Assembly (NCBI GenBank): GCA_030704615.1
Contig: CM060731.1
Span: 27,280,001-27,344,000, forward strand
Source of the DNA: Takakia lepidozioides
Taxonomy: Eukaryota > Plantae > Bryophyta
Length of the DNA stretch: 64,000 nucleotides
Direction: 5' to 3'
Both the position numbers and the translations under genes were made by a program. This document shows positions 1,390 to 57,259 of the stretch, in pieces. Within the stretch, counting starts at the first letter, position 1; each line of letters opens with the position of its first letter. The notes below the pieces were generated by a model. It was given only the letters and a program-made list of their open reading frames with translations. It was not told where the DNA came from and made no database searches.

Positions 1390-4035
1390 AAAGGGGTACA
1401 TCCGGCCGAGTAAGTCACCTCACGGAGCCCGGTGCTATTCGCAGACAAGAACGATGGGACGCTGCGGATATGTGTCAATTACAGGGCCCTGAATAAGGTG
1501 ACTATCAAGAACCGGTACCCTTTGCCAAGGATCGATGACCTCTTCGATCGGTTGGCAGGAGCGAAGTATTTCAGCCGGATTGATTTGCGCTCTGGGTATC
1601 ATCAGATCCGAGTGGCGGAAGGAGATGAGGAGAAGACCGCGTGCAGGACAAGATATGGTTTGTATGAGTTCTTGGTGATGCCTTTTGGGCTCACCAACGC
1701 ACCCGCAACTTTTAGCACGCTAATGAACAGCCTTTTCCAGGAGTGGTTGGACGACTTTGTGATCGTGTACATCGACGATATCTTGGTGTACTCGAAAACA
1801 AAGGAAGAGCACCTGGAGCACCTCAAAAGGGTGTTCCAGAAATTACGGGAAGGGAAGCTGTATGCCAAAGCTTCAAAGTGCGAATTCGGGGTCACAAAAG
1901 TGGAGTTCTTGGGGCATGTGATTACACAGGATGGGATCAAAATGGATGACAGAAAGGTGAGAGCAATCTTGGACTAGGAGCCTCCGACTTCGGTCCCAGG
2001 AGTGCGATCCTTCTTAGGACTCGCCTCCTATTACCGAAAGTATGTGAGAAATTTCGCCAAGATCGCGGGGCCGCTGTCAGACCTCTTATGTAAATCCAAA
2101 GTCTGGGTATGGAACACCTTTTATGGCCAAGCTTTTGCCGAGTTGAAGCAACGGATGGCGGAAGCTCCAGTCCTGAAAATCCCGGAGTTCGACCGTCCAT
2201 TTGAGATTCATACGGATGCGTCGGACTTCGCGATTGGAGGTGTACTCATGTAGGATGGACGTCCAGTGGCTTACGAAAGTAAGAAACTGAATGAAGTGGA
2301 GTGACGATGGCCAACGCACGAGAAAGAGATGAAGGCAGTGGTGCATTGCCTTGAGCTTTGGCGCCACTATGTTGGTTCCAACCCGGTGAAGGTGTTCATG
2401 GACAATGTCACGGTGAAGTATTTTGCCACACAGCCTAAGTTGTCCCCAAAACAACTTAGGTGACAAGACACTTTGGCGGTGTTCGACGTGGATATCCAGT
2501 ACAAACCGAGATGGGACAATGTGGTGGCCGATGCTTTAAGTAGAAAGCAGTAGCTTATGTTAGTGTACAAGGGCGAGACGGCGCTCCAGAGGAAGATCCG
2601 GAAGTCTTACCAGAAGGATGAGATGGCGAAGTCCGTGATGCGGGACTTGAGGATGGGGGTTAAATCGCAGTTCCACTTGCAAAATGGACTGCTCCGGTAT
2701 AAGCAAAAACATCTCTATGTGCCGATGGGAGGGATCAGAGATAGTCTCTTAAGAGAATGCCATGATGGCCCGCTTGCGGGCCACGGCGGAGCCAAGCGCA
2801 CCGCGCCACTCTTGAAGAAAGAGTATTTTTGGCCCAAACTGAGGGAGGAGGCCGATGAGTATGTCAAGACATGCACCACATGCCAACAAAACCGGAGCGA
2901 GTACAAAAAGCAAGTCGGGCTGTTACAACCCTTGCCGATTCCAGAGGGGTCTTGGGAAAGTGTCTCGATAGATTTCATGACTGTTATGCCGCTATCAAAA
3001 GGATTCGATGCAATCATGGTGGTGGTGGATAGGTTCAGTAAAATGGGCCATTTCATCCCCACCAAGGAGACGGTAACGGCGTAGGAAACGGGGCGACTTT
3101 ACTTTGCCCACGTCTTCAAGCATCATGGACTCCCGAAGGATATTGTCTCGGACCGCGATCCAAAGTTTACAAGTAAGTTTTGGAGGGCACTTTGGAAGAA
3201 AATGGGGACGAGGCTCAAAATGAGCACCGCCTTCCGACCTACGACGGACGGCCAAACGGAAAGGGTGAATTCCGTGGTGAAACAGATCTTGTGGAATTAC
3301 GTGTCGGCAGATCAATCGGACTGGGTGGAGCACTTGGATGCGGCAGAGTTCTGTTATAATAACACAAAATATTCCGCAATGGGAGTTTCCCCTTTTGTAT
3401 TGGTCTATGGAAAAGCACCTCTGGTGCCGACAAGTTGGGCCGCCCAAGACGTTGAGGAACCGGCAGCAACGGCAGTGCTGGAAGAACGCGAGCGTTTGTT
3501 GAAGCTCGCAAAGCACAACATTGCCAAAGCTAGGAAACGGTATGAACGGCAGGCGAATCGGAAGCGGAGGGAGGTTAAGTTTGAGGCAGGCACGGAGGTC
3601 TGGTTGAACATCAAAAAAATTCGACTACCTCCGGAAATGAGTCCGAAGTTCGTACCTCCGTATGCAGGACCCTTTCGCATCCGGAAGGTTATGAATGAGG
3701 ATGTGTATGAATTGGAGCTGCCGGCAAACAGCAAGGTGCATCCGGTATTCCACGTCTCCTTTTTGAAGCCTTACTTCAAAGATGAAGCGCGTCCAAATCG
3801 GCCTCAAGTGTTGCGTCCGCCACCTATGCTGTTGGATCATGAAAATGAACCTCAGTACAAGGTGGAGGCAGTGCTTAAGTCGAGGAGGTTCAAGAATCGA
3901 GAAATGGAGTATCTCGTGAAATGGAAGGGCTATCATCATGTGGAGGCATCTTGGGTGCGTGCCTCAGAAATGGGGAACGCATCCGAGGCGGTTGCAGCTT
4001 TCGAAGGGCGACCTCAAAAGCGGAAGAAGCGTTGA
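1390..4035 (+). pseudogene. pol remnant: RT (YIDD), RNase H (HTDAS), integrase (HHCC + DDE), chromodomain
   Basis: ORFs 1432-1977, 2002-2253, 2557-3084 and 3202-4035 share one frame and are split by single stops. Chromodomain YKVEAVL...YLVKWKGY...SW; ends in KRKKR. Confidence 0.93.
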
Positions 4036-5676: not shown

Positions 5677-6299
5677 TACAAGCCCTCTTTCTTGTAAAAC
5701 CATGTAAGCTTTGTGATGTGAGGGCTCTCTCCTTAAGAGCTCCACCTCTATAGAGTAAAGTAATGCTTCTCAAACCCTAACATCCATGTTCTCCACGCCA
5801 CAAGGATTTTCCTTTGCAATACATGCAACACCTTGCAACTCAAGAGCTCTCTACCAAGCTCCCTTCAACACTCAAGTGCTAAACTAATCTTTACACTCCA
5901 CACTCACAAGCATAAGGTGATCTTCTTATAGTGAAAAGAGTTGAGAAATGAGAGAAGTGAAAGACCATCAAACCACTCTCATTCATGAAAGAAAACACAC
6001 TAAGACCACACCCTAGTCATTTCAAGTGTGAATCCACTCCATCACTCATATATAAGTCAAGCCAAGGGCACCTTTGCTAAAGGAATCCACCCTACTAACC
6101 CTCACACTCTCTCTCAAGAGCTCAGGCTATGGAGGCTCAACTAGAAGAAGATGAGCCTTCCCAAGCCTCACGTGGAGATAACCCACTCCACATCCCAAGT
6201 GAGATTAGTCATCTCACTTGGCACATGGAACCTAATGAAGTCCCAATGCACAAAATACCAATATAAATATCTAAAATGTCCTAGTTAACTAGAAGTAGG

Positions 6300-8630: not shown

Positions 8631-9819
8631 AAATTTCTCCATTTGATTTTGGGTGGCCATATATGCCCGAAAAGCCCCGAAAATGAATGCCAGTGCAAAC
8701 ACTGACCAAAACTCCTCAATTTTGGTCACAAATTCCCTCGTGATACCCTTAAATGCTCACCATTCTGCAGGTCCATTCGATTCAATCTCCAACCATGAAA
8801 AAACTCTGAGCCACAAATCTCGGCGGAAACGTTGCTTCCATCGCGGAGCCAATTATTGGGGTGTAGAGAGATCAACGCTTGGGCCTAAATCTTCACATGC
8901 ACCGTTTTGCCCCACCATTAGACACTCCATTTTTTTTTTTTTCCACCAACAACACTCGATAACGGCTTCATCCTATAAGTTTTAGATCCTTAACACAACA
9001 AAATCCCAATCGACGACTATCACTGGATAAAACCTCTTTTGGATTTTAAAGGGAGCAACTCATTGAATTGAACTCACACATATGGACGCGAATAGCCGCC
9101 TTGGAAAAAAGATCGATTGCGGGCGAACCCTGCGGATTTACGTTTTCTATTGTACCCTCTCAGATGAGTTATGATCGAGTTTTATTCAAGACTTGGTATG
9201 ATATTTCATAGACATTGAAACCAACAACTCTAATCATATGAAAATATGGTCAAGCTATTGCTAGAACAGAAAATTTGGCGTAATATGAGAGTCACTATGC
9301 TCCTCGCCTAATAAGATAAAAAAAAACTTTGAAACCCATCCACTCCCCCTCTTCGGAGAGAGTTCATATCCCCTAAGCAGAAACCCAAATAATAAATTTG
9401 TAAGAACCATCCCCTCTTCTTCTTCAGAGAAAGTTCGAGTCCCCAGGATAATAAATATTTTCAAAACCGCCATTCTCCCCTACCGGACTCGCTTAAAATT
9501 CCTATGATAGAATATGTAGAGACGCGAGGCTCCGGGCTGACCAGCTCAGACAATAACTGTGCCAATAAATTGGGCTATAATAGTAAGACCTAATCGGCGT
9601 GTATGAAGATTTTACGAATAGAATTTAAATGATACATAAAACGTACTAGGTATATTACTCTCTATAGAAAGTTCACTTTACTCAGCATGACAGCCAGCAT
9701 GTAGCCCAGTGGTAATGGCACATACCACGTTGGATGTGCTTGTGGGTTCAAACCACGGTCTGGTGTGTCATAAGGTGTCCACCTTCCTAGCAGAAGGCAA
9801 TAGCCCTTCGGAGTGAAGT

Positions 9820-10176
9820 TTCAAGTTAAATAAGCACAGTGTGAAAACAACTAGAATAAAGCTAGTTATTTGTATTTAACACTTGGATTTAGGTCAAGTG
9901 TTAAATCAGGTGTCAAGTTTAGTTTGACACCTGAACCGCCTTATCTTCACAAGAGCGGCAGTCGCGTAGCTCATCTCTCTCGAGTTGAGCCTGCGCGACC
10001 GAGCTCCTTCATGCGTTTAGATCTGAGTGTGCTTATGATGGGAGTGTAGGTTGTTGTGGGGTGGAGTCCCCATAGCTTGGGGTGCCCCTGGCTCGACTTC
10101 TATTTTAAAGAGTGATAGCGATGGATTTCATATTTCTTGTGTTGAGAGTGTGTGTCCTTTTAGCTTTTGTTTATCA
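9820..10176 (+). repeat. Terminal repeat A1 (3' part of the LTR)
   Basis: ~357-bp direct repeat of 21185-21542 with about 8 differences by eye; ends TTTATCA. Confidence 0.95.
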
Positions 10177-10196
10177 CTCGAGAGAGATGATGCTAC
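10177..10196 (+). promoter_or_regulatory. Self-priming primer-binding site complementary to LTR sequence 9966-9984
   Basis: CTCGAGAGAGATGA-t-GCTAC immediately after the LTR CA end is the reverse complement of GTAGC-TCATCTCTCTCGAG. No TGG tRNA-type PBS is present. Confidence 0.8.
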
Positions 10197-10876
10197 CTAG
10201 TTTTTAGTGCTAAGCTAGATACAATGTTTTTTTAGCACTATTATAATATACATCTTGGGGCAGGAGTCCATCTGGCCCTACTGTTGCCATGGGCTGTGCG
10301 CGCAGATCTAGTTGTCGTCTCTGCTCGTGAGTTTAAAAAAAAAAAAACAAGAGGTGTGGAGGTTGGAGACTTTGATAGTTGACCACAAGGTCTTGGTGAT
10401 GGAGTCTTGCAGTGACCATTGAACTGTCTGCCTGCGCGATTGCGCGATGGGCCCATGGGAGGCGGCCAACATTAGCCATTTCTCTCATATCTGGGATAAC
10501 GAGACACTGCTTTCTTCATCTAAAGCTACAACTGCTCTCTCCCGGCGAAGGGCCCGCGCTGGCTGGGATTTGGTGACCAGCGATATTCCGCCAGCATGAG
10601 TGGGACTGGCTTCCGTTCCATGCAATATTAGGTCTCTCCCGGCTTAAGTTAGTTCCAATTTGCAGGGCAACAAGTCTGCATTGTTTGCTGTCTCTCGCAA
10701 TGGCCATTTGCTGCAGGGTTGGAAGTTCAAGGCACCAGTTACCTTCGCCAATGTGAACGCATTTGACTTCCGGTCACAATGAAGGAGACGAACTTCTGAG
10801 GAATGCTGATGTCGCTGAGATTCTGCACCGGACCACTTTCCCTCGTTCAGTCAAGCTTTCGGGAACAGAGCTCCTT

Positions 10877-11065
10877 GAGACATATCTGCACCGAATCGGT
10901 CGAAGCGGGCGGTTTGGTCGCAAAGGTGCTGCTTTCAATTTGTTGCTCACAGATCAAGATGAGCGAAACGTCACGAAGATTCAACGTCATTTTAACAAAG
11001 TGATTTCTGAGGTGGCATGGAATGATGATGTTGCAATAGAGGAAGTCTTGAGGGATGCAGGCCTT
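10877..11065 (+). pseudogene. Captured fragment of a DEAD-box RNA helicase (Dbp5/DDX19/LOS4-like C-terminus)
   Basis: [23 protein letters not shown] (motif VI)...KIQRHF...EVLRDAGL. Upstream helicase motifs are absent. Confidence 0.8.
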
Positions 11066-11649
11066 GCAAGAGCCTCCCTACACAGGTCTGGTAAAACAAG
11101 GCTTTCATGTGGCAGATCTTGGAGAGGGTGAAGAGCAGACACACATGTGTTTGCTTCCATTCTTCTTGCAGACAAAGGTTCTCGAGTGGCCAAGAAGGCT
11201 GCCAAAAAGCGAAAAGCAGCATTTTAGTAAGCGTTTTTGATGTATCGGTGCGCTCAACACAGTCATACTGGGTGACTGTCACATTTCATACCACTCCATA
11301 AAGTCTTGATAGCTGGGAGTTTTCTATCCAAGACCACTTGACGGCCCGTAAGGAGTGAGAGCAAATGGGCATGGAGTATTGAGCTGGAGCAGATCTCTTT
11401 GGATGAGTGTGCATCACAACAGTTCTTTTGCACACTCATGTTGCAGCATGAAATTGTGAGCACTGCGGGTGGCATTAGAAGGAATGCTGCACTGAGAGGG
11501 AGGTGAGCAGGCACATGAAAAAGAGCGGGAGGCAAAGAAGACGGGGCCCATTGCAGAGCAAGGGAGCTCCATGCTATGAGTCAGTTCTTGCCTCGTCCTG
11601 CTGCCGCTCACTGTTGCAAGCTCCATCTTCAGCCGCAGCGTGCAGGCCT

Positions 11650-11795
11650 AGTTCGAGGAAGAGGAGCAAGAGCGCAGGAGTAGATCCGCCATCGCCAGAG
11701 CTAAGATGCCCCCGCCATCGGAGAAGATTCACAGGCTAGTTGATGAAATTTCCAGCCTCACTCTACTTGAAGTTTCGGATCTCACAACGCTGTTG
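11650..11795 (+). pseudogene. Captured fragment of organellar ribosomal protein L7/L12 N-terminal region
   Basis: MPPPSEKIHRLVDEISSLTLLEVSDLTTLL from ATG 11706 (below the ORF-track cutoff) matches the L12 dimerisation helix motif LTLLEVSDL. Confidence 0.7.
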
Positions 11796-12200
11796 AACTC
11801 AAATGAAACGGAGGGGAACAGCACGCACGTGGCCAGGGAACCTAGGAAACCATATAGAACTTAGGGAACCGGGAACCAGTTACCAGATATTTTGGGTGCA
11901 ACTTTAAATTTTTAAATTTGAAAACCTTAAAAAAAAAAAAAAATGGCCTTTGATCTAATTTGAATGATTTAGAGCCAAATTGGTCATATTTTTGTCAAAT
12001 GGGCTCTGTTTGACTCAGTTTTTGAGGGGATAGCTGCAGAAAGGGGAAATCTACCAATCTAGATCTGGTTTTTGTTTTTAGGACTCTGCTAAAAATCTAT
12101 GGAATTTTAGAGTGTGAGTGTGCCATGAAAGATCCACAATTCTGTTTCTAGAACCTGTGCTGGTCTATATGAGAGACAAATATGTGGATGTACTCCTTGT

Positions 12201-12950
12201 ATGGCTGGGGGAAATGAGGACGTAATTGAAGGGCAGGTCTCTTCTCTTAGCCTGTGCACACAAGGGGACAGGATTTATGTTTCCCAAGGAACTCAGACTG
12301 ATTTGAGTGGAGAACAGTTGGACGAGTTGATTGCATACTGGGAGTCAGGCATTAGCAGTGGACAACAAACTGCTGTAGTTGGCGTTGAGGGCCTCAATAT
12401 TGCTTTGGACAGTCAGAACACTGTTGGAGCCAACAGTTCTGCAGCTGTAGGTGAAATACCAAAGTGGGTGAAAGCTAGGCTTGGAACACAGCCAAAGACA
12501 GCCCCGGGGACCAAGGTGTTTAGCCACAAGGCCGTGGTGTACTGGAGTAGAGGAGCAGGAGCTACACAAGTTTGTGCAATCAGACAGCGTTGCAGCCGGA
12601 CACGCTCTGCACAAGACAACCACGAGCGGGGGTTCATTAGCGAGGACAAGTTTGTTCTGTTTGAAGGAGATGCAATCATTCGCAATGAGGACACCCGCAA
12701 CCGTCTCAAAGCTTTTGAGTTGAGAGACTATCAGACCTTACCTTTGTTTTCTTTAGTGTTTAGTGAGCGGGAGATAGGGGAGTATTGCTTTGTCTCTACT
12801 TGGCAGAAAGAGGAGGAGGGTTGGTTAGAGCGAGCTACTGTAGCTTGGGACAAGGTTAGTGGCAGGTTTCTGGACATAGATATACCTCCTACACCTTACC
12901 ATCATGCAGAGCGAGGCACTTTGAGAGAAGTCTGGCAGTTGATAGCATAG
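12201..12950 (+). CDS. Extra 249-aa ORF of unknown function upstream of gag
   Basis: Intact ATG-to-stop ORF inside the element; no domain recognised. Confidence 0.55.
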   Translation: MAGGNEDVIEGQVSSLSLCTQGDRIYVSQGTQTDLSGEQLDELIAYWESGISSGQQTAVVGVEGLNIALDSQNTVGANSSAAVGEIPKWVKARLGTQPKTAPGTKVFSHKAVVYWSRGAGATQVCAIRQRCSRTRSAQDNHERGFISEDKFVLFEGDAIIRNEDTRNRLKAFELRDYQTLPLFSLVFSEREIGEYCFVSTWQKEEEGWLERATVAWDKVSGRFLDIDIPPTPYHHAERGTLREVWQLIA

Positions 12951-13468
12951 ATCAGGATTAGATCTTGCTTGGTCGGGCTTCTATTCTTCCCCTCCATCTC
13001 TGTACTATTTTCATTACCTTGTACTTGTAGTTGCCAAAGCCTCTCTTGGTGGAGGCCAGTCAGTCCGGGGTTTTGGGCTGGGATATTCTGCAGGATCAGC
13101 ATTGCAGCTGGATTTTGGTGTGGGGTGTTGATGTTTTGATTTCTTGTGTTTGGATCCCCCCCAACACTTGCATGCTTGACTGTGCGCCATGTTGGTTTTG
13201 TGTGGGCGCTTGCTTTCATAGGGATTAGGCCGGATTTGATCACCGGTCAATCCTAGAGTATGCTGTCGGTGGTGAGGCTGGAGTGATGACCAGCAAGACC
13301 ACCAGTGTTTCTTCTATGGTGAGGCTGGGTTGATGACCAGCCAACCATAGGAGTTCTTGCGGTGGATGCAGGTGCAGGTGCCCTGAGCCATTGGGATATG
13401 ACCCTTAAACTGCAACAGGTGCCCACCCGTGTCACTATTAGAATTAGTACTAGAGCCTATAGTGTCAC

Positions 13469-15000
13469 GTGGGGGAGGTGCACATTGTGAGTGTCATCAC
13501 GGAGTTACCCAAGGGTTTTGAGGGGAGTACGGCTACAGGCAGTAGCAGTGAGAGTGGGTTCACAGACGAGGTATTCGTTTTCAGACCACCTTCACCTCCA
13601 CCCTCAACTAGTGCAGAGTCAGACACAGACTCGGAGGCTTCATCAACAGGTGTGCAGTTTCATTCGCCATTGTTGTGGGACGACATGGAGGAGATGTATG
13701 GAGCTACCAAGGGGCCTCGTAGGTACTCTGGAGCTGTGGGCACAATCGAGTTGGATGACTTTATCCAGGAGTTCGACAGCTGGTGTGATTTGCAGCAGAT
13801 GCGCAATCCACAGCTATTCCCATTCATGGCGTGGAAGGGACTGTTCCAGCATTTGGAAGGCCCGCCTATGGACGATTACCACGAGTTCAGGCGAGGACAT
13901 GAAGCAGAGATTGAGGAGTGGAGGATGTATTGGTCACCTGACTACGTCTCCATTACTCGAGGCACGACGCGACCAGTAGCTGCATCAGTACCAATATCTC
14001 CCACTGCCAGCACTAGTAGTGGAACAAGTAGTGCCGGTACTTCTGCAGGTGGTACCAGTTCAAAAGGTGCTACTACTCCTCCTGCCACGACTACAACACA
14101 TGTGCCTAGATTCAACCCGGTGGTGGAGTTCTTCCAGGAGTTGCGGAGGAACTACCAAGGTGTACGGACAGAGAAGCTGCGAAGTTTGCAAGACTTCCAG
14201 CGCAAACCCAGTGAGAGCCTGCGAGAGGCGTACACTCGTATGAGGCGCTTGATAAGTGTGACCCAAGGGGTTACTGAAGCTCAGGCAATCCAGTTTGGTA
14301 TGGAATTTTGGACAAGGAGCTCAAGAGAAGGGTGCGGGATGCAACCCTGTTACAAAGCCCAACCCACATTAGCAGATGTGTTTCTGCTGGCTGAGCGGAT
14401 TGAGCTCAACATGGTGGAGGAGCGAGTTGTTACCATTGGATTTGGCAAGGACATGCCTGCACGAGGCGCAGCTGCCAGCCCACAGGCACAAGGGACTGCC
14501 CAACAGCGTGGTCAGGGGGCAAAGTTTCCCAACCCAAGTTCCATGGAGCTTACAGGGGACCTCAGGTGCAGAGGCCCGTGGCATCTTTTGCAGGCCAACA
14601 ACAACCAGGGTGATATGTTGGACATGTGGAGGACCCCATGTCAAGAGAGATTGCCCAGAGAGTGGCAGAAGGCCGGCACAAGCACAGCCTGCACAGTTGC
14701 AGTGTGGGCATTGTGGCAAGTATGGGCATGGAGATGCCCAGTGTTATGACTTGCATCCTGAGTTGCGCCCAGGCCAGTTCCAAGGGAACAATGGTGGCCG
14801 GGGCGAGGTGGACCAGCCCAGAGAGGACGAGGTGGTCGGGCACGAGGTGCAGGCCAAGGGCAAGCTCAACATGGCCAAGGACGCGGAGGTCAGGGTGTTG
14901 ACCAAGGCATGGCCAACCGGCTTCAGCAGCTAGAGCAGAGGCTCGCTGCAATGGCTATAGCTCAGGCGGTACCGGCTCCCAGGCGGGATGGTCCACCTCC
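13469..15000 (+). pseudogene. gag (capsid-like region plus two zinc knuckles), frameshifted
   Basis: LDDFIQEFDSWC...FQRKPSESLREAYTRMRRL; CWTCGGPHVKRDC and CGHCGKYGHGDAQC. Confidence 0.85.
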
Positions 15001-15679
15001 TGCTCCTGAGGGAGGAGATATGGGAGGCATGGGATTCATGTGCGGAGCAGCACTACCACTAGAGCAGGTGGAGTTTGCTGCAGCCGTGACTCGAGGAGCA
15101 GCACGAGTTCCTGAGCCACGAGGTGCAGAGGTGGAGTTGGATCCACAACGTGGAGAGGCAAGCCGTCAGGTGAGGCTGCCTCAGTCATTCACCTTGGCGG
15201 AGACAGTGTCAATGCCATCCATGGCACCTAGTTCTCGCCCGATTGTTACCGAGGCGGAGGTTTCTATGCCATTGGGGAGAGCTACACGTGCAGCACTGAC
15301 ACCTGCTGCCAAGGCTAGTGCAGCCGGTGTGTTGTGGGGGCAGCCACCTCTGTGTGTCAAGCCCCACTGTTCTCGGCAACCATGATTGCGGCGCCGGGGG
15401 TAAGACCAGCTGCAGTGTTCAGACTAGCAGCAACACTCTGTGAGAGTGGGGAGGTAACTTCATCTTCTGCGGAGTTACTGGAAGGTGTAGTGGCAGAGGG
15501 ATCCTTGGATTTGAGGGTCAAGACTGCCACGGCTGCGCCATGGCAAGCTGCAGCTACCAGGTTGACGGAGCTGCCAGCTAGGCCAGCCTTTGAGCGCGCC
15601 ATGGTGACACCTGGAGTTGTCTGTTCAGGATGATATTTTCTCTTTGAGTGGACCGGCAGGCAAGAAGTACCGGCCACTG

Positions 15680-15960
15680 CGGGTCTTGTTGGACTCGGAG
15701 CTCAGCCACTGATGTTGGGCAGAGCTGCTATTGCAGGTTTGGGCCTCATGGCGGCGGATATGGAGCCTTGTCCTTTCCAGATACAGACATCTCTGGGAGG
15801 ATCAGAGCAGGCTCGGGGCATGACACGGCATCAGTTGGCCATTAGACTGCAGCCGGATCATCCTATCGATGGCTCAGTAATGCGAGCCAAGGCCATTGTG
15901 ACAGACGCGGTCTCTTACGATGTCCTCGTTGGGGGGCAGTGTTATACCCCATGGGCTTCA
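15680..15960 (+). pseudogene. Retropepsin-type aspartic protease
   Basis: RVLLDS(G)AQPLMLG (1-nt deletion) ... YDVLVGG. Confidence 0.8.
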
Positions 15961-16399
15961 CCCTGGACTTTTGGGAGGAGTCAGCATTCTACAGGCGTGG
16001 ATGGCAGTCAGGGGATGGTCGTCGTGGATAGCTCCCTGTGACATTCATTGGGGTATTGCGGCTGCCCAACGGGGCAAGATGCCAACACTAGCCGCCTTTA
16101 CAGCTGCAGTTAGTTGGCCTGGAGAGTTGCTGGAAGGCAATGCCCATGCAGAGGATGTGCCACCTCCAGCAGAGCAGGATGACATGCATGGTGTGGCGGA
16201 GTTGCCTGCCATGGTTGCTCACACTCCATTGTGGGGTACGAGCAAGGATTTGCAGCAGGGCTGCTGATCGACGGGTGCAACAAGCCTGGGTAGAGGCTTT
16301 TGTACCGTCAGGAGAGGAGGAGAGTGCGGGTATTGCACCAGGACCACCTCAGTTGTCACCATTGGATACCACACCTATTGTGTGGCAGTATCCGGATGA

Positions 16400-17150
16400 A
16401 GGCATTTGCCTTCTGGACTTGTTTGGCGGGATCAGCACCGGATTGGCTGCTGTGCTACAGGCAGGTGTGCAGGTAAGGCGTTACCTGTATGTGGAGAGGG
16501 ATGAGACTGCACGACGCGTCTCACTGCGCCATGTTGCTCAGTGGTACAGCAGTACCCTGCTTTGTTGCAGTGTCTGCAGTTCGTGGATACCAACAAGCTC
16601 TGCATTCGTGGATACCAACAAGCCTTGCCAGCAGATATTTCGTTGCTGGGGGCGCCGGATTTGGAGCAGGTTGGCTCCATTAATCTGGTAGTGGCAGGTT
16701 GGCCCTGCCAAGGGCATTCATCAGCCGGCATGGCAATGGATTGCGAGACTCGAGGACAGGTCTGTTTGGGAGATGGTGCGGATTTTGCGCTACTTGCAGC
16801 TTCATCAAGCTGTATTGCCAGCATACATCTTGGAGAATGTGCCACTGATGGGTGATTCTCGGGCCAGGGTGATGGCCAGTGTGCATCAAGTCCGGTCGTG
16901 GCTTGGGTTAGCAGTGCTGCTAGATGCAGCTGCAGTGGGATCACGGGCTCATCGTCCACGGCTATGGTGGACTAACTTGATGCCACCCGCACTGCTCAAG
17001 CGTGCAGCGGCCAACACACCTCATAGTGCAGCATTGGACACAGGTAGCAGTCTCAACGTGTGAGACACGATGACCGTTCACCTTTGGCAGTGGTCACAGG
17101 GTGGGTCAACCACGAGCAGCGCAAAATGGATCTCATGCAAAATGGATCTC
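16400..17150 (+). pseudogene. C5 DNA cytosine methyltransferase domain (DNMT3-like) within pol, frameshifted
   Basis: Motif I LDLFGGI (16413), motif II YLYVE, DI, motif IV VAGWPCQG (PC at 16703-16708), motif VI YILENV (16833), motif VIII AHRPRLWWTNL (16947). Confidence 0.9.
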
Positions 17151-17599
17151 ATTGCTCGACCTGGAATTACAGCTTGGCTATGGCTGAGCAACTTATAGAG
17201 TGCGGAGTGAAACACTTGCCCTTGACGTCTCTCTGCCTACCGGGATGGTACAGCCGCGAGTGGGGGCGAGCCGGTGAGGACCATGGGGTGTATACATCCA
17301 TGGCACACGTGGGAGGTGCTCGAGGTTCAAGGGAGTTTGGCAACCACGGCCGCTGTGATGGGATGATGTTGGGGATTCTTCTCGGGATAGGAGGGTTTCG
17401 CAATGATAGATGAGGGAAGATACAATTATAGGCCTTGTCATTGACTGAGCAAGAAGGGAGTACTACTCAAGAGTTTGCAGCATAGCAACCACAGTTACGC
17501 GTCCTCTACCCTCTAAGCCTACTGGACTTAAGGTTGCAGTTATGGAAGGAACAATTGGGAGCCTGACAAATTGGACCCAATTGTCCCAGGAGGAGAGAG

Positions 17600-19070
17600 A
17601 CAACGTATGCGCGGACGGTTCTTGAAGGGCTTACAGGAATTGCTTGCTTCAGTTTTGAAGGACTTGGGAGTCACTTAAGGGTCAAGAGATCCGTATTGAG
17701 TTGGCCACTGACACGCCAATCTTTCGGAGACCCTATAGATAACAGTGAACTGGGAGGGTCTTTGATTCAGATGATGACTCAGATCTCTGGGAGGCAGGTT
17801 TGGTGGAGTCTCTCATTGTGGAGAGTATGCTTCAGCCACAGTGATGTACCAGACCAAGAATGATGTCTATGGCAAGAAATTGGACGGAAGAGACGTATGT
17901 CCGGTGATTACCGGCCTGTAAAGCCATCAGACCAAGTCCGAAATCGGTATGCCATGCCCACACCATAGGTAGATCTTTGATGCCATTGTGCATAGCAAGC
18001 CAAGGTCTTTAGCACTTGGACTTTTTACGATCCGGATATCACCACAGTTGCCAGATCAAGAGGCGGATAAGCAAAAGACGGCATTCTGGGGGATCAATGA
18101 GCACGGGAAGGATTGCCTATACCAGGGCGGTTCTTACTTGGGGGGGCTTAAAATACCGCTCCCGCTGAGTTTCAAATAGTCATGAAGGATTCTAGCAGGG
18201 TTGAGTTTTGCTCGGTGCTATATAAAGGGAAACATCACATCTTAGTGCTACGGTGAGGAGCGATGGAGACAACCTTCAGGGGGTATTTGAAGCGCTGAGG
18301 ACACACGGATTGAAGTTACAATCCGGCAAGTGCAGTTTTTCCACAACCGATTGAATTATCTGGGTCACATGATATATCCTGGAGGATTAGGGGTACATCA
18401 GACTAAGGTAGAGTCCATTGCCCAAAAAATTCCCGCACGGACCACGGATGTGAGCCGAGTTCGAGCTTTCATGGGTTAGCAAACTATTTACAACTACGAT
18501 TTGTTACAGGTTTAGTGCCATTGCAAAGGCTCTAACCAAGCTGACCAAGGTGGACCAGGAGTGCATTGGGAAGATGATGAAGAAAACAAAAAAAAGCTTT
18601 TCAGAGCTCAACAAGGCAAGGTTGACCTCGGCGCCCATTCTTTGAGACGACCTATCAGGGGGCGTCCTTTTCAGCTGCATACAGATTGGAGCATGCTGGG
18701 GCTTGGAGCGGTGCTCACACGCAGTGGAAGAGTGAGGGAAGAAAGTTCTTAGTGGCTTATCTAGCCGCTTCGAACCACGCTGCAGAGTCTAAGTATAGCT
18801 CATATTAGATGGCGAAACATGCTTAGCTTCAGTGTGGGCCAGTGCACAGAGAGCAAAGTTCAGGTGCTATCTATATGGCAATCTCTTCATCTCTTCACAC
18901 CTTGTCACTGATCACCAACCCACTCAAATGGTTGATGGAGTCAGACAAGCTTACGGGGAAGCTTGCCCGGTGGGCACTCATCCTTCATGAAGTAATGACT
19001 TTCAGGTGGTGCAGTCGACCGGGTTTGGTCCTCTCAAGTAGTGCAGATGGGTTGAGTCGCAATCCATGCA
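17600..19070 (+). pseudogene. Reverse transcriptase and RNase H, heavily frameshifted
   Basis: GDYRPV, GYHQL, DKQKTAFWG, LKLQSGKC; RPFQLHTDWSMLGLGAVL, TDHQPLKWL, KLARWALIL, ADGLSR. Confidence 0.88.
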
Positions 19071-19449
19071 CGAGCCAACAGGATGACACTGGAGACTCGG
19101 TGGCATGGTAGAGACGTGACGAGGAGATGAATGCCCGGATGGCAATGTCATCTGCATTTCTGTGTATCTTCTTGGCAGCGGAATGCCAGGTTGGACCTTC
19201 GACAGTGGATGACTGTAGATCAAGTGTCTGCGGACCCTGAGGCCAGCAATGAGCAAGGGGTCGTCAACACAGATATCCATGAGGATTCAGTTGTTGTTGA
19301 CAATACCTCTGCACTGGGAGACCAACGGCTCCTTAGGGGTGTGATTGTGCCAAGGAAAGATGGATCGGATCCTACAAACGGGCCAAGAGGTTCACATTGG
19401 GAGGGGACACACTTGTGCTCCGAGTGGGGTGGAGTGGTCGAGTGAGGAT

Positions 19450-20260
19450 TGTGCCTCACCCAACACCAGGGGGCAACGGTTAAGTGCGCCTGGGGGCCCA
19501 TGAGGAAGTTTTGGGGCATTTTGGATGCGACGCACTCATAGTCTACTGCAGGGGGGCAGTATGTGGGGCGTGTGGTAAATGCACACGAAGTTGCACAATT
19601 TGTGGCTAGGTGCATGGGTTGTGACAAGGGTGCGTGCTTTGGGGTCATCAAACCCCTTACTCCAGGCATTGCAGCACCCTCTCGTTGTTAGCTTTGAGCC
19701 GATCATGGGGATTGGGCTACAGGGTGAGTCTTGACTTCGCAGGGCCATTGCCATGTAAGGACCATAGGAAGCTAGGGCACACAACAAGTACACGTGTTTG
19801 TTGATGGTGGAGCACTTCTCCAAGTGGATTGAATTTGTTTCCTTGCCGATTATAAGTGGCTAGTGAGGGAGCTGCGTATGCTTCTTAGATTGTGTGCTTA
19901 GCCGATTCGGTTGCTCCAGCTGAGGCCTCAGGAGATACCACGGACCAAGGGAGAGAGTTCTCGGGGGAGTTTTCAGGCTTTGTGTGACAAGGCTATTGAT
20001 AGACCACCGCAACCCACTTCCTCGTGGAGCATCCTGAGGCCGCTATGGCTTGGCAATAGGAGTTGTTCAGCACATACAGAGGGGTTTGCGTAAGTATGGC
20101 TAGCAAATGACAGGGAACCTGGATGGAGATTGGGACCTTCAGTTACCGGCTGTTAGCCCATGGGCTACAAGGTTCAGCAAAGCAATCATCACTGCCTCCT
20201 TCTCGGAAACACAAAATACTTTCTTCAAAAACTCTTTGGGCGCGAACCGATTTGCCATAC
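19450..20260 (+). pseudogene. DDE integrase (HHCC + catalytic core), frameshifted
   Basis: HEE..GHFG, C..CD, LDFAGPLP, VEHFSKWIE, TDQGREF, WDLQLP, LFGREP. Confidence 0.85.
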
Positions 20261-20692
20261 TCCATTCGCAGAGAAGCTGCTACAGATTCTTGACCTTGAC
20301 GATCCGGACGTGTGGGCACGTGCATGTGAGCAGCGTGCAGAGTTGTTCAAGAGAGTCATGGAGCCCATGGGCTTTTGAGAACCTTTCCATTGGCACAACA
20401 CCGGATACATTGAGGTATGCTAAAAGACCATACGTGTGGGGGGGGGCTATCGTCCTGGGGTTGAAATTCAACCCTGGTGACTATGTCTATCTGCAGCAGA
20501 CTGCTCCTACGACCCTGGATGTGACTGCATGACGTGTTATTTGAGGGTTCGGAGGTCTTGTCCCTCAGGCGTTTTGGTCTTGGAGGGTCGGGATGGCATA
20601 ACTTGGAAGACCTGTGCGTTATTGTGCGCCATGTCACGTCTGAATGTCGATGGCAGATTGAACCCAAACTGCAGTGGTCCTGCAGGTTGAGG

Positions 20693-20837
20693 TGCATGTT
20701 GTGTGGGTCTGCTAAAGGGGCAGCCACCATGCTGGTGTGTGATCGATGCTCTAGAGGTTGGTATATTGGGATGCTTGACTCCACCTCTTGAGATGGTTCC
20801 GGATGGGGATTGGTTATGTCCACATTGCATTGGATAG
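20693..20837 (+). pseudogene. C-terminal PHD finger of pol
   Basis: CMLC...MLVCDRC.RGW(H>Y)..CLTPPLEMVPDGDWLCPHC* with one frameshift; C4HC3 pattern. Confidence 0.85.
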
Positions 20838-21097
20838 TGGGAGTGGATATAACCATGGAAGGCTAACAAGAAATGCAAAGCCAAGCTACTAGGGGACCTT
20901 GAACACACGAGGTCTTGACTCAAGTTCATAGATTGCAAGACGGCGACTAACGATGGGGCTACTCTTGTACCCGGCCTCTTGGTCTATAGAGTTTGAGTAC
21001 AATAGGGACAGTGATAGAGGACTTAGTACGGCTGTGGCTATTACATCTTGTAGCTATCTGGAGGTAGAGGGACCTATCCACCAGCTAGGGGGGCGAT

Positions 21098-21628
21098 TGT
21101 GGCAGACTACTTTATTGTGCATATATGTGTGGTGTGGTTTGGACAGCGATGTAGTTGTGTAGCGATATGTATGCGCACGACAGCTGTCAAGTTAAATAAG
21201 CACAGTGTGAAAACAACTAGAATAAAACTAGTTATTTGTATTTAACACTTGGATTTAATTCAAGTGTTAAATCAGGTGTCAAGTTTAGTTTGACACCTGA
21301 ACCGCCTTATCTTCACGAGAGCGGCAGTCGCGTAGCTCATCTCTCTCGAGTTGAGCCTGCGCGACCGAGCTCCTTCGTGCGTTTAGATCTGAGTGTGCTT
21401 ATGATGGGAGTGTAGGTTGTTGTGGGGTGGAGTCCCCATAGCTTGAGGTGCCCCTGGCTCGACTTCTATTTTAAAGAGTGATAACGATGGATTTCATATT
21501 TCTTGTGTTGAGAGTGTGTGTCCTTTTAGCTTTTGTTTATCATTGTGGCAGACTACTTTATTGTGCATATATGTGTGGTGTGGTTTGGACAGCGATGTAG
21601 TTGTGTAGCGATATGTATGCGCACGACA
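21098..21628 (+). repeat. 3' terminal repeats B1 (21098-21182), A2 (21185-21542), B2 (21544-21628)
   Basis: B1 and B2 are identical 85-mers. The B1-A2 junction is the palindrome GACAGCTGTC (21179-21188); the A2-B2 junction is CA-t-TG. Confidence 0.95.
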
Positions 21629-22812
21629 GAAGTGACTCCATAAGTTATGCTTCCTTCGAGAGGCGTCATACTTTACGTTACTTTACTCAGCAGCTGGAGA
21701 TTAAGAATGAATGGAAAGTTCATCTAGGAGGGTGGAGCTAAACTTAAATCTGAATTTACTCCACCACTCTCATAATAAAATGGAATCAAGCATGGATTCC
21801 CCTATGTTTTGATTTACTAAAACAAACGACGTTGCGTCATGGCTCAGATGCATATTGTCATAGTAAGACAAATTGTAAGATCAGAGATAATTCCCCCCAT
21901 CATTTGGAGAGTCTGCATGTCCATAGTCATTTTTATAGCTTCCAGTTTGAACCAGGTCAATAGATCGAAATCAATGGTAAAGTCAGACCATGTTTTAGTA
22001 TTGGTACCTATGGTTACAGAGTTGTGAAACTAGTGATTCAGGGTTCTTTCACCCTCGGGACGAGTGTTCCTCATTGGTCGCCATATGTAAGTGTATAAAT
22101 TAATGCGCAGATTAAGATTGAGAGTTTTTGAGGACCAAGAGAGTCAAGCTGTACGTAAACAGTGCAGAATCAAGACCATTTGTTACAAAAACGGTGAAAC
22201 ACTGATATAGCTATTAGTATCACCCACAAATAGAAAAGTTTGCGACAACCATTAAGCAAAGAGAGCTCAGACGTATATACTCCTAGGGTGTCTGCTAAGA
22301 GCAGCAGTTGAAGGCGTACAGTCGTCGATTGCGCATTTTTTGTGGCTGGAGATTTAGTTGCTTTAAAGAAAAGCGTTGGAACATAAGGATTAACGTATCA
22401 AACATATAATAATAGATGTGCATATAAACAAATAACTAAACATTATAGTTTATTTTATAATAAACTCTTCAATGTAGTTATGCATATATTGTGATATAAA
22501 TATTTTTTATTTTCATTTTGATAAATAAATATTTGCATATAAACACTTTTAAGTTATCAAATATAGATAGTGTATCTGAGCAAATAACTATAATCTATTT
22601 AAATGATAAATTATTTATATGGTTATGTGATTTCTAAAGTTACGAATGATATCCAAAGCTAATTGTAGTAATGAAAATTTATATCTGATTTTGAAATGCT
22701 TTCAGAAATTAATTATGTATATTTATTGTTAAATTACAAGCTGAATCTTTGTTAGTTATATTCATGGTGGTCAAACACATGTGTTGAGTTTATGCTTCTT
22801 TATTTGATACAG

Positions 22813-23490
22813 GTATAGATTAATACAATACGAAGTACTCAATTTTCATGTTTTGGGAAAAGGAATCGCTTTTCGAAATTTACTTGAGACGCTTGTTTTG
22901 TATAAAATTGGATCACAGGTACATTAACCATGTAATATATATGATTATTTATATTTACGCTAATTCACTTAAATGATGATAGGTGTTGTAATTATATTAA
23001 AACGTATTTGATTGTCTGCTCAATGTGTTTTTTTAAAATCATAAACATATATAATATAATATAATCTTATTATTATGTTCATAATTTTTCATAGTTGAAT
23101 TTAGCCTTGAAATACAAATCAATGCTAACTACTAAATAAAACTATTTATTTTGTATGTTACATTGAATTTATGTTAAAAAACTAGTCCAAAATGTTTTAG
23201 TTTTATGTAAGTTCTAGTCAACTAAGAATCTATATAATTAGATTGGACCAAAATGAAAGAGTCTATTGTTGAACTCCGTTTTATGTTATTTGTTTAACGC
23301 TAGCTTCTCAACAATTAATACTACAAATAGCTCAAAGTGCAATAACATTTGCATTTGTTTCAACTATTTTAGAAATTTGTTTTAGGGACTTGAACTTGCA
23401 CTTCGAATAGCAAGAGAGAAACAACTCAAAGACATATATAGGATTGGTGCTACAATCAAGATCCAAGCTGCCATTCGGCGATATTTGATG
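22813..23490 (+). pseudogene. Two phase-compatible exons encoding an IQ calmodulin-binding motif (probable decayed multi-exon gene)
   Basis: AG/GT-bounded exons 22813-22918 and 23386-23490 splice to YRLIQYEVLNFHVLGKGIAFRNLLETLVLYKIGSQ|GLELALRIAREKQLKDIYRIGATIKIQAAIRRYLM. Upstream candidate exons (~21700-22395) contain stops. Confidence 0.5.
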
Positions 23491-34000: not shown

Positions 34001-35108
34001 GACCAAAATTATCAATGTACCACAGCAGAACTGACCAACTAGTGCTCGTAAGTGTGTGCCCCACTAATTCACTGACCACCGAACATCCTTGAATAGATTT
34101 TTACATGCGATCAATCTCAAGATATTCTGCAAGCTGGAATCATGTGTCAGTCCAGGGAGGCAAGGCTCTCAATCGGAGGACTTTGGGTTTTTGTGTTCTG
34201 CTGTGGTTGTCTCCAGGAGCTTGCAAATAGGTGAGGCTCTGCGGTTGCAAATGGAAGTGCAACGTCGGCTACAAGAGCAGCTTGATGTATCCTTCATTTC
34301 ATATCCTGACTCCTGATATGGCTTTTACAATGTTTTCATACAAAAAATCAACGAGTTTTCCAGCAAGCATCTGTGAGGGGAAAGGTTGTAGGTGTTTTAT
34401 GGCTGCTGTTGCTGGGTGGAATGGGAGTAGAATGGTCGATTTCAATTCTAGACAGTTGCAGGCAAATAGAGGATGGGAGGTATCATGCCTGGTTGCACCA
34501 ACCAAAGTGCACAAGATGTCAGTTGTTTTGTCATTATGCAATTTGTTGCGTGCTATGGTGAACGAGTCAATTGATGTGGGTGGCAATGACTGCAGGTTCA
34601 GAGACACTTGCAACTTCGAATTGAGGCCCAGGGGAAGTACTTGCAATCCATTCTGGAGAAGGCAAAGGAGACACTAGCCGGCCATACTGCAGCAGCCCCA
34701 GGGCTGGAAGCTGCTCATGCTGAGATCACTGAGTTGGCCTCCAAAGCTAAGGAGGGACTCAACCCTTCATTCTCCCAGTTATCTCTGCCAGGGTTGACTC
34801 CATTGGAGATGTCTGCACATGGGAGTGATGCTAGGGGGGGCGCGCCACTGCCACGCCAGCAGTCCCGAGTATCAGACTCCTCATCACCAAAGAGCTACCT
34901 TACTGGTGTTGCAGCAACACCTGATGACAGTCTCAGGCCTTCTGGGAGCAGGGAGCAAGTGGCAGCAACCGGTAAGACAAGACTCCCAGACCCTATGTAC
35001 GTTCACAAGATCCCCTTTAGGGAGGACAGGGAGTCGCAGAGCTCCAAGAGATCAGTGCTAACTGCTTTCAATAACAGGAATCAGGTAATACTAGGCTTGG
35101 GGCTATGA
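31012..35108 (+). CDS. MYB-CC (GARP G2-like, PHR1/PHL family) transcription factor. Exons 31012-31225, 32436-32512, 32867-32936, 33460-33526, 34217-34286, 34596-(34971 or 35108); 3' end uncertain
   Basis: [54 protein letters not shown] and coiled coil [41 protein letters not shown]. All GT-AG junctions are phase-consistent. Confidence 0.93.
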
Positions 35109-55179: not shown

Positions 55180-57255
55180 ACCCGACGTAAAATAGATTGA
55201 GCTTAAGCCTTTTGCAAAGCAACAGAAAAGCTACAAGAACAGAGGCGTATGGGCTTCTAAGGCTTTTGTTTTTTGCTGCACGATGGGCACATGTGCAAAG
55301 GAACTCGTTGAACTGATGATGCAAACAACCAAAGATCTCGACTGCCGAAGGAAGGAATGTGTCTGTGGAATGACGTGCCCGATAGTCATGCTCATTTCCC
55401 TGCGTAACTATTGAAGCGGCAACTCCCTATGATGAGGTTGTGCCGGGCAGGAGATCCGACCTATTAGGATCAGCGATGACAACGTCCGCCAATGTACGCA
55501 GTCCATCCTGTGAGAGAACAATGTCGTGGGTGGATGGGAGTATGTGCACCTGCTCTCGAATGACATGTATCCCAACATCACGAGCAACCGCAGCTGCTGC
55601 ATCCCAGACGACGTCATGCGTCGCAGTGCGTTCTCCACCGCAGGGGCAACGAAGAAGATGTACAGCGAGTGAATCGAGATGATGGCGACAAATACATTGT
55701 TGTAGTCCTAACACAGAGGGATGCGGAAGACCCATTCAAACTCGTAGGGAGGTGGTAAATACAGCTGAAGACATGCGGAAGGGTGCAATGGTTGGTCGTA
55801 CCGTGAGCCACGCGCCTGCTCCGGGCCCTGCGCACAAGAGAAGTCTGGCCCGATGTGTATCTGAAGGAGCGTCGAAAAGCATGCTGGCAAATGAGTGTCG
55901 GTGCACGCGTTCCATGATAGTATCATGTAAATGCTCCAGACCCTGAGTGACCAACTGTTCAAAGGGTGGCAGACAATCCCGTGCTGGTGTTGGGATGAGA
56001 TCTTGCGCTGAACGAAGATGTTGCTGGAAGGACAAAGAGCCATTGTTGATATGGGCAGCCACCTCCATGAGAAAAGGGCGTTGCTGACACATAAACCGAG
56101 ATGCCAAGGTTGGAGTGACTAAAGCCCAACTACCTAGAAAGGCAACAGGGGCAGTGATGAATGTGGATAGTAAACCCACTCCTCCAGAAGAGATCGGGAA
56201 GGTAGCCTGAGGACATGCCAAGGGCCCCTGCTCACTATCAAATGCACCTGGGCCTAATAGACGACCAAAAATCCCCCTAACAGTCGTATAAAAAGAAGAC
56301 AGAAGCTCCACAAACTGGGGAGTTGAGGGGGAAACAGTAAAAGATAAGAAGGTCGCTGTAAAAAGCATTTAGTGAGAATGCCATGGGCTACCTGCATATC
56401 CCCTAGTTTGGGAAGAAGCTCTATATGGCTTGTATCCTATATTCCTACTTCGGACTGGATTACTGTAAGATCTCCGGTACGGGTGTGATGACTGTAAAAC
56501 AAAAGGATGGAGGAAGCATAAAACAATCCCACAAAGGGAATGAGTTGATGGCATGCGCCGCCGGCTGATCGCAGTTCCTGAAATATTGCTGATCTGGACA
56601 CCGTGTTGAAGGCGTTGGTCACATGCACCTGAAGGACGACCCATTTTGGATGAAGGTCAAGGGAAGCCCGAATCCCATGCACCACCGCTTCACAACCTCC
56701 CGGAGTAGCGACCCCAAACTGATGTGGAGAAAAGTGAGAAGAAATGACCTCCCGAAACTGGATCCAGATAGAGCGGCTCACCAAGCGATATAGAACCTCC
56801 CCCACTGCAATAGGACGAATCCCACCTGTGTTCTTGGACATGGCCAAGAGCCGTGCTGCTCCAAACAAACGTGTTACTGGGGTAGGTATATGTCCCATCG
56901 CAATGAAAGAGCAAACTTCGAACAGCTGGGAAAAGCCACTAGCAGAGTCATGTGGATCGAGACAGTCGCGGAGATGTTCATACATCAAACTAGACGGACC
57001 GGCTGTTGCAAGATGAGGGCTACGAGTGAATACTTGTATGAAAGTATCGCGATCCAATTGAAGGTCCTCATCAGGTTCAAAGTCCTCCACAAAGGAAAGA
57101 AGGATGTCGTCCGCACTGGGGTGGAGATTCTCCAAAGCTGTGACAGTATCAGCCGAAGGCGGTGCTGGGGTAAGAGGAGCAAGAGCTTGAGCTGCACGGG
57201 AATACTCTCCTGCCCGGCCTAGCATAAGACTCCGACGAAGACGCATGTGGATAGA
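55180..57255 (-). mobile_element. CRE-like (RLE-clade) non-LTR retrotransposon, 5'-truncated and frameshifted
   Basis: GGIRPIAVGEVLYRL, QFGVATPGGCEAVVH, TNAFNTVSR, SSGGVGL, GAGAWL, HLLRC..GERTATHD, LADVVIADP. Confidence 0.85.
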
Positions 57256-57259
57256 TGGA

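Follow-up and report, generated by a model that had tools for sequence, protein, structure and literature searches.

The retrotransposon Tf1 of Schizosaccharomyces pombe carries an 11-nt self-primer that is cut by RNase H (PMC7175516), and the release of this self-primer by RNase H is likewise reported in a second account (PMC4600332). Tf1/sushi elements are chromoviruses with a three-duplex structure (10.1101/2022.12.06.519325). For plants, the accessible text of PMC6317226 gives predictions of self-priming for Tcn1 chromoviruses and TAR copia elements only. Phygy, Selgy and Chlamyvir, unlike the element described below, have primer-binding sites (PBSs) of tRNA type (Trp, Ala, Met) according to the same source.

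Retroelements that carry a DNA methyltransferase (DNMT) form a separate strand of the literature. De Mendoza et al. drew KnitGypsy-Dnmt3 of Klebsormidium nitens as A-coding-B-A-B and called it DIRS-like, with no mechanism; the accessible part of their description, from which the label 'DNMT3-like' for its domain is taken, gives no PBS, polypurine tract (PPT), att site or target-site duplication (TSD) (PMC5890265). An opinion of 2019 held that land plants such as tracheophytes lack transposons with a methylase (PMC6338049), and the text available from two further sources mentions streptophyte DNMT3 retroelements without structure (10.64898/2026.05.21.726589; PMC12344493). In the accessible literature, outside subscription papers, Repbase, Dfam and some supplements, we found no account of priming, att site or mechanism for Gypsy-DNMT elements, and only two papers in which they are named. 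On the side of integration, a circle-junction model was proposed in 1984 (Panganiban and Temin) and later set aside for linear DNA (PMC11054761), and the integrase of foamy virus can cut a palindromic junction between two LTRs (PMC1180852).

Here we describe an element in 64,000 nt of Takakia lepidozioides contig CM060731.1 (GCA_030704615.1, positions 27,280,001-27,344,000), a stretch referred to as the window. Our reading, fairly probable when taken as a whole, is that of a self-primed Ty3/gypsy element with a DNMT and a PHD finger, whose end-joined cDNA is likely cut by integrase at an internal palindrome.

The element and its relatives

The element occupies 9819-21628 and is a decayed Ty3/gypsy retrotransposon with gag, protease, DNMT, reverse transcriptase (RT), RNase H, DDE integrase and PHD finger. 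Its leader and coding features are as follows.

10790..11122, + strand: captured host fragment in the leader, C-terminus of a DDX19/DBP5-type helicase (phmmer against PDB: DDX25 E 2.7e-12, DDX19B 4.1e-11)
11709..11855, + strand: captured host fragment in the leader, ribosomal L7/L12 dimerisation domain (N-domain; PF16320 E 8.6e-6)
13685..14804, + strand: gag with zinc knuckle, frameshifted (tblastn with Marchantia P0004; PF03732 weak, E 0.003)
15322..17060, + strand: aspartic protease and DNMT (C5 cytosine methyltransferase), frameshifted (tblastn; motifs)
17550..19093, + strand: reverse transcriptase and RNase H, broken (tblastn)
19507..20834, + strand: DDE integrase with C-terminal PHD finger, broken, no chromodomain (PHD match weak, E 0.006)

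The domain order gag-PR-RT-RH-IN with a DDE integrase is that of Ty3/gypsy and is shared with Tf1/sushi. A C5 methyltransferase lies within the gypsy polyprotein, as in streptophyte Gypsy-DNMT3, its motifs DLFGG, GWPCQ and ENV being in different frames. No tyrosine recombinase family was found in the element, and rve is present. The leader (10200-13460, 3.3 kb) carries both host fragments, and leaders in the family of one relative, L089, measure about 1.1 kb. The stretch 13400-21000 is heavily frameshifted despite identities of 97.8% between the two copies of repeat A and 100% between those of repeat B (see below), which may reflect a non-autonomous subfamily or assembly indels.

The gag ORF matched 14 proteins (13 from Marchantia polymorpha, one from Sphagnum fallax), ten of which contain PF00145, and the DNMT region matched 66 proteins, which are arranged either as Gag-PR-DNMT or as RT-RH-DNMT-IN-PHD. 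In L088, a relative that is intact, RT, RNase H, rve and PHD are present and Chromo is not; its pol has Ty3 Gag-Pol as best PDB match (E 7.8e-102), and its named relatives, among the best 120 of 3,469 matches, include Calypogeia, Riccia, Klebsormidium and Closterium. Chromo and SH3_Tf2-1 were both absent from L088, P0042 and P0054, in which PHD was present. A FastTree analysis of 152 RT-RH segments longer than 330 aa, which holds neither the broken RT of the window nor a named Tf1/sushi reference and is thus not a placement, gave a clade of 137 (support 0.957) that contains all DNMT-labelled sequences and leaves out the three chromodomain-bearing ones. The Klebsormidium RT+DNMT protein P0113 falls in the same RT clade.

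The element belongs with the streptophyte Gypsy-DNMT3 elements and not with Tf1/sushi. It resembles KnitGypsy-Dnmt3 in combining a Gypsy pol and a Dnmt3-like domain with A-coding-B-A-B repeats, but in the window the DNMT lies between protease and RT, and the hosts include liverworts and mosses. Unlike Tf1/sushi, it has a PHD finger in place of a chromodomain, a DNMT, permuted repeats and a probable internal att site. In the above tree, drawn without named Tf1/sushi, the RT-RH of its clade lies outside the chromodomain-bearing sequences. No three-duplex fold above shuffled sequences was found. A comparison of proteins P0032-P0065 with P0001-P0031 shows the DNMT at two positions in the clade, between protease and RT or between RNase H and integrase. 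In P0165, the Dam-type family PF05869 stands in place of the usual DNMT domain.

Probable self-primer and primer-binding site in the window copy

An earlier sequence-only reading had pointed to a 14-nt exact complement right behind the CA end of the LTR, and this we confirmed. The sequence CTCGAGAGAGATGA (10177-10190) stands directly 3' of the CA of repeat A1 (10175-10176), without a gap, and matches the reverse complement of 9971-9984 at every position. Perfect complements of at least 14 nt were found at 11 of 63,500 window anchors, each compared with its 357 nt upstream and the PBS site counted. The RNA fold of 9960-10210 reaches -97.7 kcal/mol (z -5.7), equalled by 0 of 200 shuffles. Past a 1-nt bulge, five further pairs join 10192-10196 with 9966-9970. 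The features of this region are as follows.

9966..9970, + strand: 5-bp extension, partner 10192-10196; copy-specific, with minority letters at 9967 and 10196
9973..9984, + strand: predicted self-primer, nt 1-12 of the predicted RNA; perfect pairing continues to 9971, and the start is a predicted one
at the predicted start of primer 9973..9984, + strand: initiator-like TCA(+1)TCT, from the sequence
10177..10190, core 10177-10188, + strand: primer-binding site directly behind CA; divergent contigs diverge past 10188 or 10190

This arrangement, a PBS behind the LTR CA that complements the part of the LTR where the RNA is predicted to begin, is that of Tf1/Tf2, Tf1/sushi and Tcn1. We also find a likeness to the TAR lineage (Houba, Osr-1; Ty1/copia), the accessible text on which predicts self-priming in plants (PMC6317226); TAR elements differ in having the copia domain order and ordinary LTRs. 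No TGG occurs in the first 6 nt past the CA of A1, no tRNA genes were found within the window, and 9700-10500 gave no Rfam match at E<=1.

We further examined variation within the family. Eight runs from five studies contain part of the element, none of them recorded as RNA, and the best runs contain 0.43 of its words. The contigs aligned over 20950-21545 numbered 5,713 in X1, 5,867 in X2 and 1,421 in X4 (one sample, perhaps the source), and 201 in X6 (another study). A run guessed to be RNA, X7, gave four contigs less than 90% alike, with the primer outside their coverage. In same-family contigs, 9967 is C in 95-100% and 10196 is T in 92-100% of summed contig depth, a measure that does not equal copy number, and 10191-10192 is variable, with indels. 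Among 40 of the 63 variant rows, no variant fell within 9969-9984 or 10177-10190 and no compensatory change was seen at 10194 or 10195. Several divergent contigs lose the match at 10188 or 10190. The core pairing is thus 12-14 bp long, and the extension is private to this copy or subfamily. The five additional pairs that the sequence-only reading had included therefore exist in the window copy but are not a family trait, since C at 9967 and T at 10196 dominate the contigs; the predicted covariation of the extension (9967-9968 matched by 10195-10194) failed in the same contigs.

Covariation of primer and primer-binding site in related families

An alignment of 18 Gag-PR-DNMT proteins led to 67 metagenome loci, most of which lack both element ends and are uninformative here. 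When genome-bin contigs were searched with the Gag-PR-DNMT alignment, five loci were obtained, namely one element (L124) and four Streptomyces matches. Viral contigs gave no gag match, and the alignments yielded in them only weak short matches of 24-51% identity, taken as phage methylases. L124 is a complete-looking element whose contig was assigned to the genome bin of a cyanobacterium, where it is likely plant or algal contamination.

Four further families retain the A end together with the PBS: L089, L083, L124 and L103. Over the 12 nt of the primer they differ from the window at 7, 5, 3 and 9 positions, respectively, and 23 of these 24 differences are compensated in the PBS. Watson-Crick pairing over the 12 nt is complete (12/12) in the window, L089, L083 and L124 and reaches 11/12 in L103, and cross-family combinations of primer and PBS pair at only 3-10 of 12. 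Between L083 and L124, two bases are swapped in the primer and likewise in the PBS. Contiguous pairing extends over 16 nt in L089, 15 in L083, 12 in L124 and 6 in L103, where one mismatch is followed by more pairs. In the window and all four families, the PBS begins at the first base past CA and lacks TGG.

Covariation of both segments across copies, which the sequence-only reading had named as a check, is thus seen in four related families, and it supports the tRNA-independent priming proposed there; the reported absence of a tRNA-type PBS also held in the window copy and the four families. We regard self-priming by the first ~12 nt of the element's own RNA as well supported and highly probable from these sequence comparisons. 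The description 'Tf1-style' is apt for the mechanism; as a statement of membership it does not stand, the element having no chromodomain.

Within the L089 family, nine distinct copies were compared; the primer is intact in six (9-16 contiguous pairs) and deleted in three, L060, L065 and L071 carrying deletions that span it. These deletions differ from each other (L060 8700-8760, L065 8660-8700, L071 8680-8720) and lie over the primer-bearing U3/R hairpin. They are perhaps template jumps across the hairpin that made dead-on-arrival copies. A more distant RT-DNMT-IN group shows a weaker signal: L102 has 14 bp without a CA border, L112 has 10 nt past CA, and L115 shows no clear primer/PBS pairing, while L107 and L109 end too early for priming to be judged.

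Predicted RNA start and folding

Core promoters commonly follow the YR initiator rule and a characteristic TATA-to-start spacing. Of ten relatives scored, eight have a TATA-like box 39-45 nt before the 3' end of the primer, and this spacing would place the start ~12-14 nt before the primer end; no clear TATA box was found in the window family, and none in L063. In the window (9973), L089, L083 and L124, the predicted start would fall on the A within a CAT. The RNA start is likely to lie at 9971-9973 rather than at 9966, because the extension is copy-specific and L124 pairs over exactly 12 nt; our best guess is 9973, giving a 12-nt primer.

Folding in relatives lends this predicted start indirect support. 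Six relatives were folded, and in five of them the last part of U3 has the sequence of the PBS and closes a hairpin on the primer; local hairpins that would bury the primer in an RNA begun further upstream, at -7.5 to -17.9 kcal/mol, are predicted for L089, L082, L063, L083 and L124. With an upstream RNA start, such a hairpin would prevent priming; it may also mask the second copy of the primer in the 3' LTR. A competing structure is predicted downstream.

9982..10100, + strand: predicted R/U5 stem, 9982-9991 with about 10090-10100, from folds; competes for the last 3 primer bases

In the fold started from 9973, 9 of the 12 primer bases pair with the PBS and the last three favour the U5 stem (P 0.00-0.04); such competition for the primer 3' end is also partly seen in L082 and L083. 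The Tf1 'pretzel', the three-duplex structure defined in the accessible text of 10.1101/2022.12.06.519325, includes two flanking duplexes; in seven elements, these did not exceed shuffled sequences (26-195 of 200 shuffles as good).

The alternative pairing predicted for the primer 3' end could suit another explanation, in which the duplex is a structural hairpin for packaging or translation control and a host RNA, such as a tRNA or half of one, serves as the primer. We consider this very improbable, since the five PBS sequences each fit only their own LTR and cannot match one conserved tRNA, TGG is missing, the duplex always runs from the first base past CA, and PBS letters occur in the junctions of cDNA ends described below. 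Self-priming remains our preferred reading of the duplex.

Permuted repeats and the palindrome at the inserted ends

The layout of the element is not LTR-internal-LTR. It reads TSD-A-internal-B-GC-A-T-B-TSD, with the following parts.

9815..9818, + strand: left target-site duplication GAAG, the same 4 nt as at 21629-21632
9819..10176, + strand: repeat A1, left inserted end, 358 nt; TG has become TT in this copy, ends in CA
21087..21096, + strand: polypurine tract, followed by one T (21097); the same G-run precedes B in relatives
21098..21182, + strand: repeat B1, 85 nt, TG...CA, 5' part of the reverse-transcribed LTR; identical to B2
21179..21188, no strand: palindrome GACAGCTGTC at the B/A joint, with predicted integrase cut CA^GC^TG; sole copy in the window
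21185..21542, + strand: repeat A2, TG...CA, from sequence comparison with A1
21543, + strand: A/B junction CA-T-TG, predicted joint of both cDNA ends; variable in the family, with PBS/PPT remnants
21544..21628, + strand: repeat B2, right inserted end ...CACGACA; 35 X4 contigs have unrelated flanks behind the same base
21629..21632, + strand: right target-site duplication GAAG, matching 9815-9818

A1 and A2 show 8 differences in 358 nt, and B1 equals B2. In standard LTR reverse transcription, PBS and PPT define the ends of the cDNA's LTR. The PBS adjoins the end of A and the PPT adjoins the start of B, so that by the standard scheme the LTR of the cDNA would be B-GC-A, 445 nt long. The segment that the sequence-only reading had called the LTR does end in CA, yet A (9819-10176) makes up no more than the last 358 nt of the reverse-transcribed LTR, the first 85 nt of which (B) sit at the far end of the element; the permuted repeats had been overlooked. 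The inserted ends thus lie inside the LTR defined by PBS and PPT, at GACA^GC^TGTC. Two full flanking LTRs with a TSD outside the PPT/PBS-defined ends were not found in the window, the TSD being located at the internal B/A joint.

Importantly, all six insertions with both ends available have a 4-bp TSD outside TGTCA... and ...ACA ends (TGTC...GACA type). The duplication is exact in the window, L071, L079, L089 and L099 (GAAG, TACA, CACA, AAGG, ATTA) and has one mismatch in L103 (GCTA/GTTA). A 5-bp TSD, GAAGT, had been considered for the window and was replaced by 4 bp after comparison with the relatives. Eleven loci, of both protein layouts and from across the RT tree, have the palindrome with no more than one change, 62-226 nt past the G-run, and eight exact copies occur in 602,940 nt versus 0.6 expected. 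In L100/L103 the palindrome has two changes, and it is absent from L106 in the 2,983 nt behind the coding region. In older copies (L065 181, L083 8656 and L100 17669), the CAG/CTG within the palindrome shows C>T or G>A changes; this is a context for CHG methylation, on which the element's own DNMT might act. From these comparisons the internal palindrome is very probably the att site.

The full form A-int-B-A-B is found in L089 and L100/L103, and its 3' end only in L065; L063 reads A-int-B-A before its contig stops, L079 has an internal deletion followed by a terminal A-B, and L071 and L099 have the form A-int-B. Of seven PPT-B ends in the L089 family, two continue into GC-A, four into flank, and one is at a contig end. 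The form A-B-A-internal-B was seen at none of 11 left ends, versus five with A-internal-(B)-A.

The A/B junctions often retain PBS or PPT letters, as joined cDNA ends do. The junction is CA-AT-TG in L089, CA followed by 9 PBS nt and filler in L079, and CA with letters from both sides in L100. Nine joints of A end and B start were obtained from X2, drawn from 12 of 15 rows and biased to contigs that differ from the window; four are CA-T-TG and five have extra letters or a change, two of them retaining the first PBS letters, one retaining 8 PPT letters, one having an extra A and one a changed base. In addition, 35 X4 contigs continue past 21182 into unrelated sequence (agreement 0.36), as is expected where the B end is an inserted end.

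An accidental origin of the window layout, by assembly error, tandem duplication or one-off circle insertion, would accord with the many frameshifts of this copy and the incomplete word content of the best runs. Its probability is negligible, however, as the same layout, cut point and TSDs occur in five other insertions from other datasets, and A-to-B joints together with many flanks behind B occur in the family contigs; assembly error and one-off circle insertion are ruled out by these five insertions and contigs.

Proposed route of reverse transcription and integration

Under the reading that we prefer, transcription would start near 9973 and the RNA 5' end would fold onto 10177-10188, whereupon RNase H would free a primer of ~12 nt, as in Tf1; an RNase H domain is present (L088). 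Reverse transcription of the LTR type would yield linear cDNA with the LTR B-GC-A of 445 nt, as the PBS and PPT positions predict. The ends of this cDNA would be joined, A end to B start, in a 2-LTR circle or head-to-tail, as suggested by the junction sequences, and the A/B joint would often be imprecise. The putative enzyme of the next step, the DDE integrase, would ignore the cDNA ends and cut CA^GC^TG in the palindrome on both strands, at the positions where the inserted ends are observed.

Processed retroviral ends carry a 2-nt overhang. The proposed cut would similarly give CA-3' ends with 2-nt 5' overhangs, to be inserted with a 4-bp TSD. A 2-base extension at processed retroviral ends is also described in the accessible text of PMC11054761. 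A 2-LTR circle opened at the 5' palindrome would become A-int-B-A-B, the only form that would preserve the two att ends together with the R repeat on which a next round depends, and a 1-LTR circle or a double cut would give A-int-B. Opening at the 3' palindrome predicts A-B-A-int-B, seen in 0 of 11, so the two sites would be used unequally or the joint would be made after the cut. Since cDNA ends would not be att sites, leftover primer letters would be harmless and might suit self-priming, a point on which we speculate. Joined cDNA is the likely precursor, judging by the junctions. We gave the circular contigs L115 and L124 no weight in favour of circles, as collapsed repeats yield such contigs anyway.

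The proposed route is like the circle-junction model and foamy virus in having integrase, here a presumed agent, act on a palindromic att site in circular DNA. It is unlike that of retroviruses, whose precursor is linear and whose palindrome consists of joined cDNA ends; here the palindrome lies within the LTR, and all mapped insertions end there.

A self-primed element cut at the palindrome could also dispense with a closed circle. Integrase would then cut linear cDNA, and the A/B joint would come from an end-to-end template jump of RT, a cDNA dimer or host repair after insertion. A double cut alone gives A-internal-B, in keeping with the four of seven PPT-B ends that continue into flank and with the TSDs of L071 and L099, and a preference for the palindrome nearer the DNA end would fit the lack of A-B-A-internal forms (0/11). 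Nevertheless, the short B piece would have to be held and joined every time, the window's B1 does not differ from its B2, as for a single molecule, and the junction remnants resemble standard circle junctions. We regard this alternative as unlikely; circle and no-circle versions are inseparable by sequence data.

Another possibility is that the split repeats are inherited via RNA in a manner like Ngaro, PAT or DIRS, by template switching over A and B, with the junction copied and not re-made. The accessible text of PMC5890265 shows the layout A-coding-B-A-B to be shared with SymbioDIRS and PAT/Ngaro, and the commonest junction is a fixed CA-T-TG. With the PBS at the A end and the PPT at the B start, however, both strands would start at the A/B borders and B2 would go uncopied; the PBS and PPT remnants in junctions, and the presence of a DDE integrase and TSDs with no tyrosine recombinase, also speak against it. 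We judge such inheritance quite improbable. The window element shares its layout with PAT/Ngaro/VIPER and SymbioDIRS, and differs from these tyrosine recombinase elements in having a DDE integrase, PBS, PPT and 4-bp TSDs.

Returning to joined cDNA as the preferred precursor, we are slightly inclined to extend the reading to a whole green-plant Ty3/gypsy clade, comprising liverworts, mosses, Klebsormidium, Closterium and unnamed algae, which would have moved its att sites into an LTR palindrome and made circularised self-primed cDNA an obligatory precursor. Retroelements with a DDE integrase would then truly follow the circle-junction path that was set aside for retroviruses. The elements would represent a third self-priming lineage in plants, one without a chromodomain, which suggests another origin. 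They would break the rule that reverse transcription sets the ends used by integrase. If joined cDNA is the precursor, they offer a natural system with productive circles and explain the DIRS-like repeats of KnitGypsy-Dnmt3. LTR finders would probably mis-date or miss this abundant methyltransferase-carrying bryophyte family.

Other features of the window

Two short perfect hairpins with 11-16-nt arms lie in the U3 part of A (9874-9934 and 21240-21300). Diverged LTR matches at 23127-23171 (83% over 47 nt) and 6050-6109 (76% over 63 nt, - strand) are perhaps old fragments. A separate chromodomain-bearing gypsy element with RT, integrase, SH3_Tf2-1 and Chromo, possibly Tcn1-like, occupies 1414-4035, its 5' end being outside the window. 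On the - strand, 55736-61536 holds a retroelement, possibly a LINE, in which a fragment of RT (PF00078) and a weakly matching SWIM finger are present. Host gene exons at 34590-35105 and 43859-44317 show the LHEQLE motif of MYB-CC and a weak match to glucosamine-6-phosphate isomerase/6-phosphogluconolactonase.
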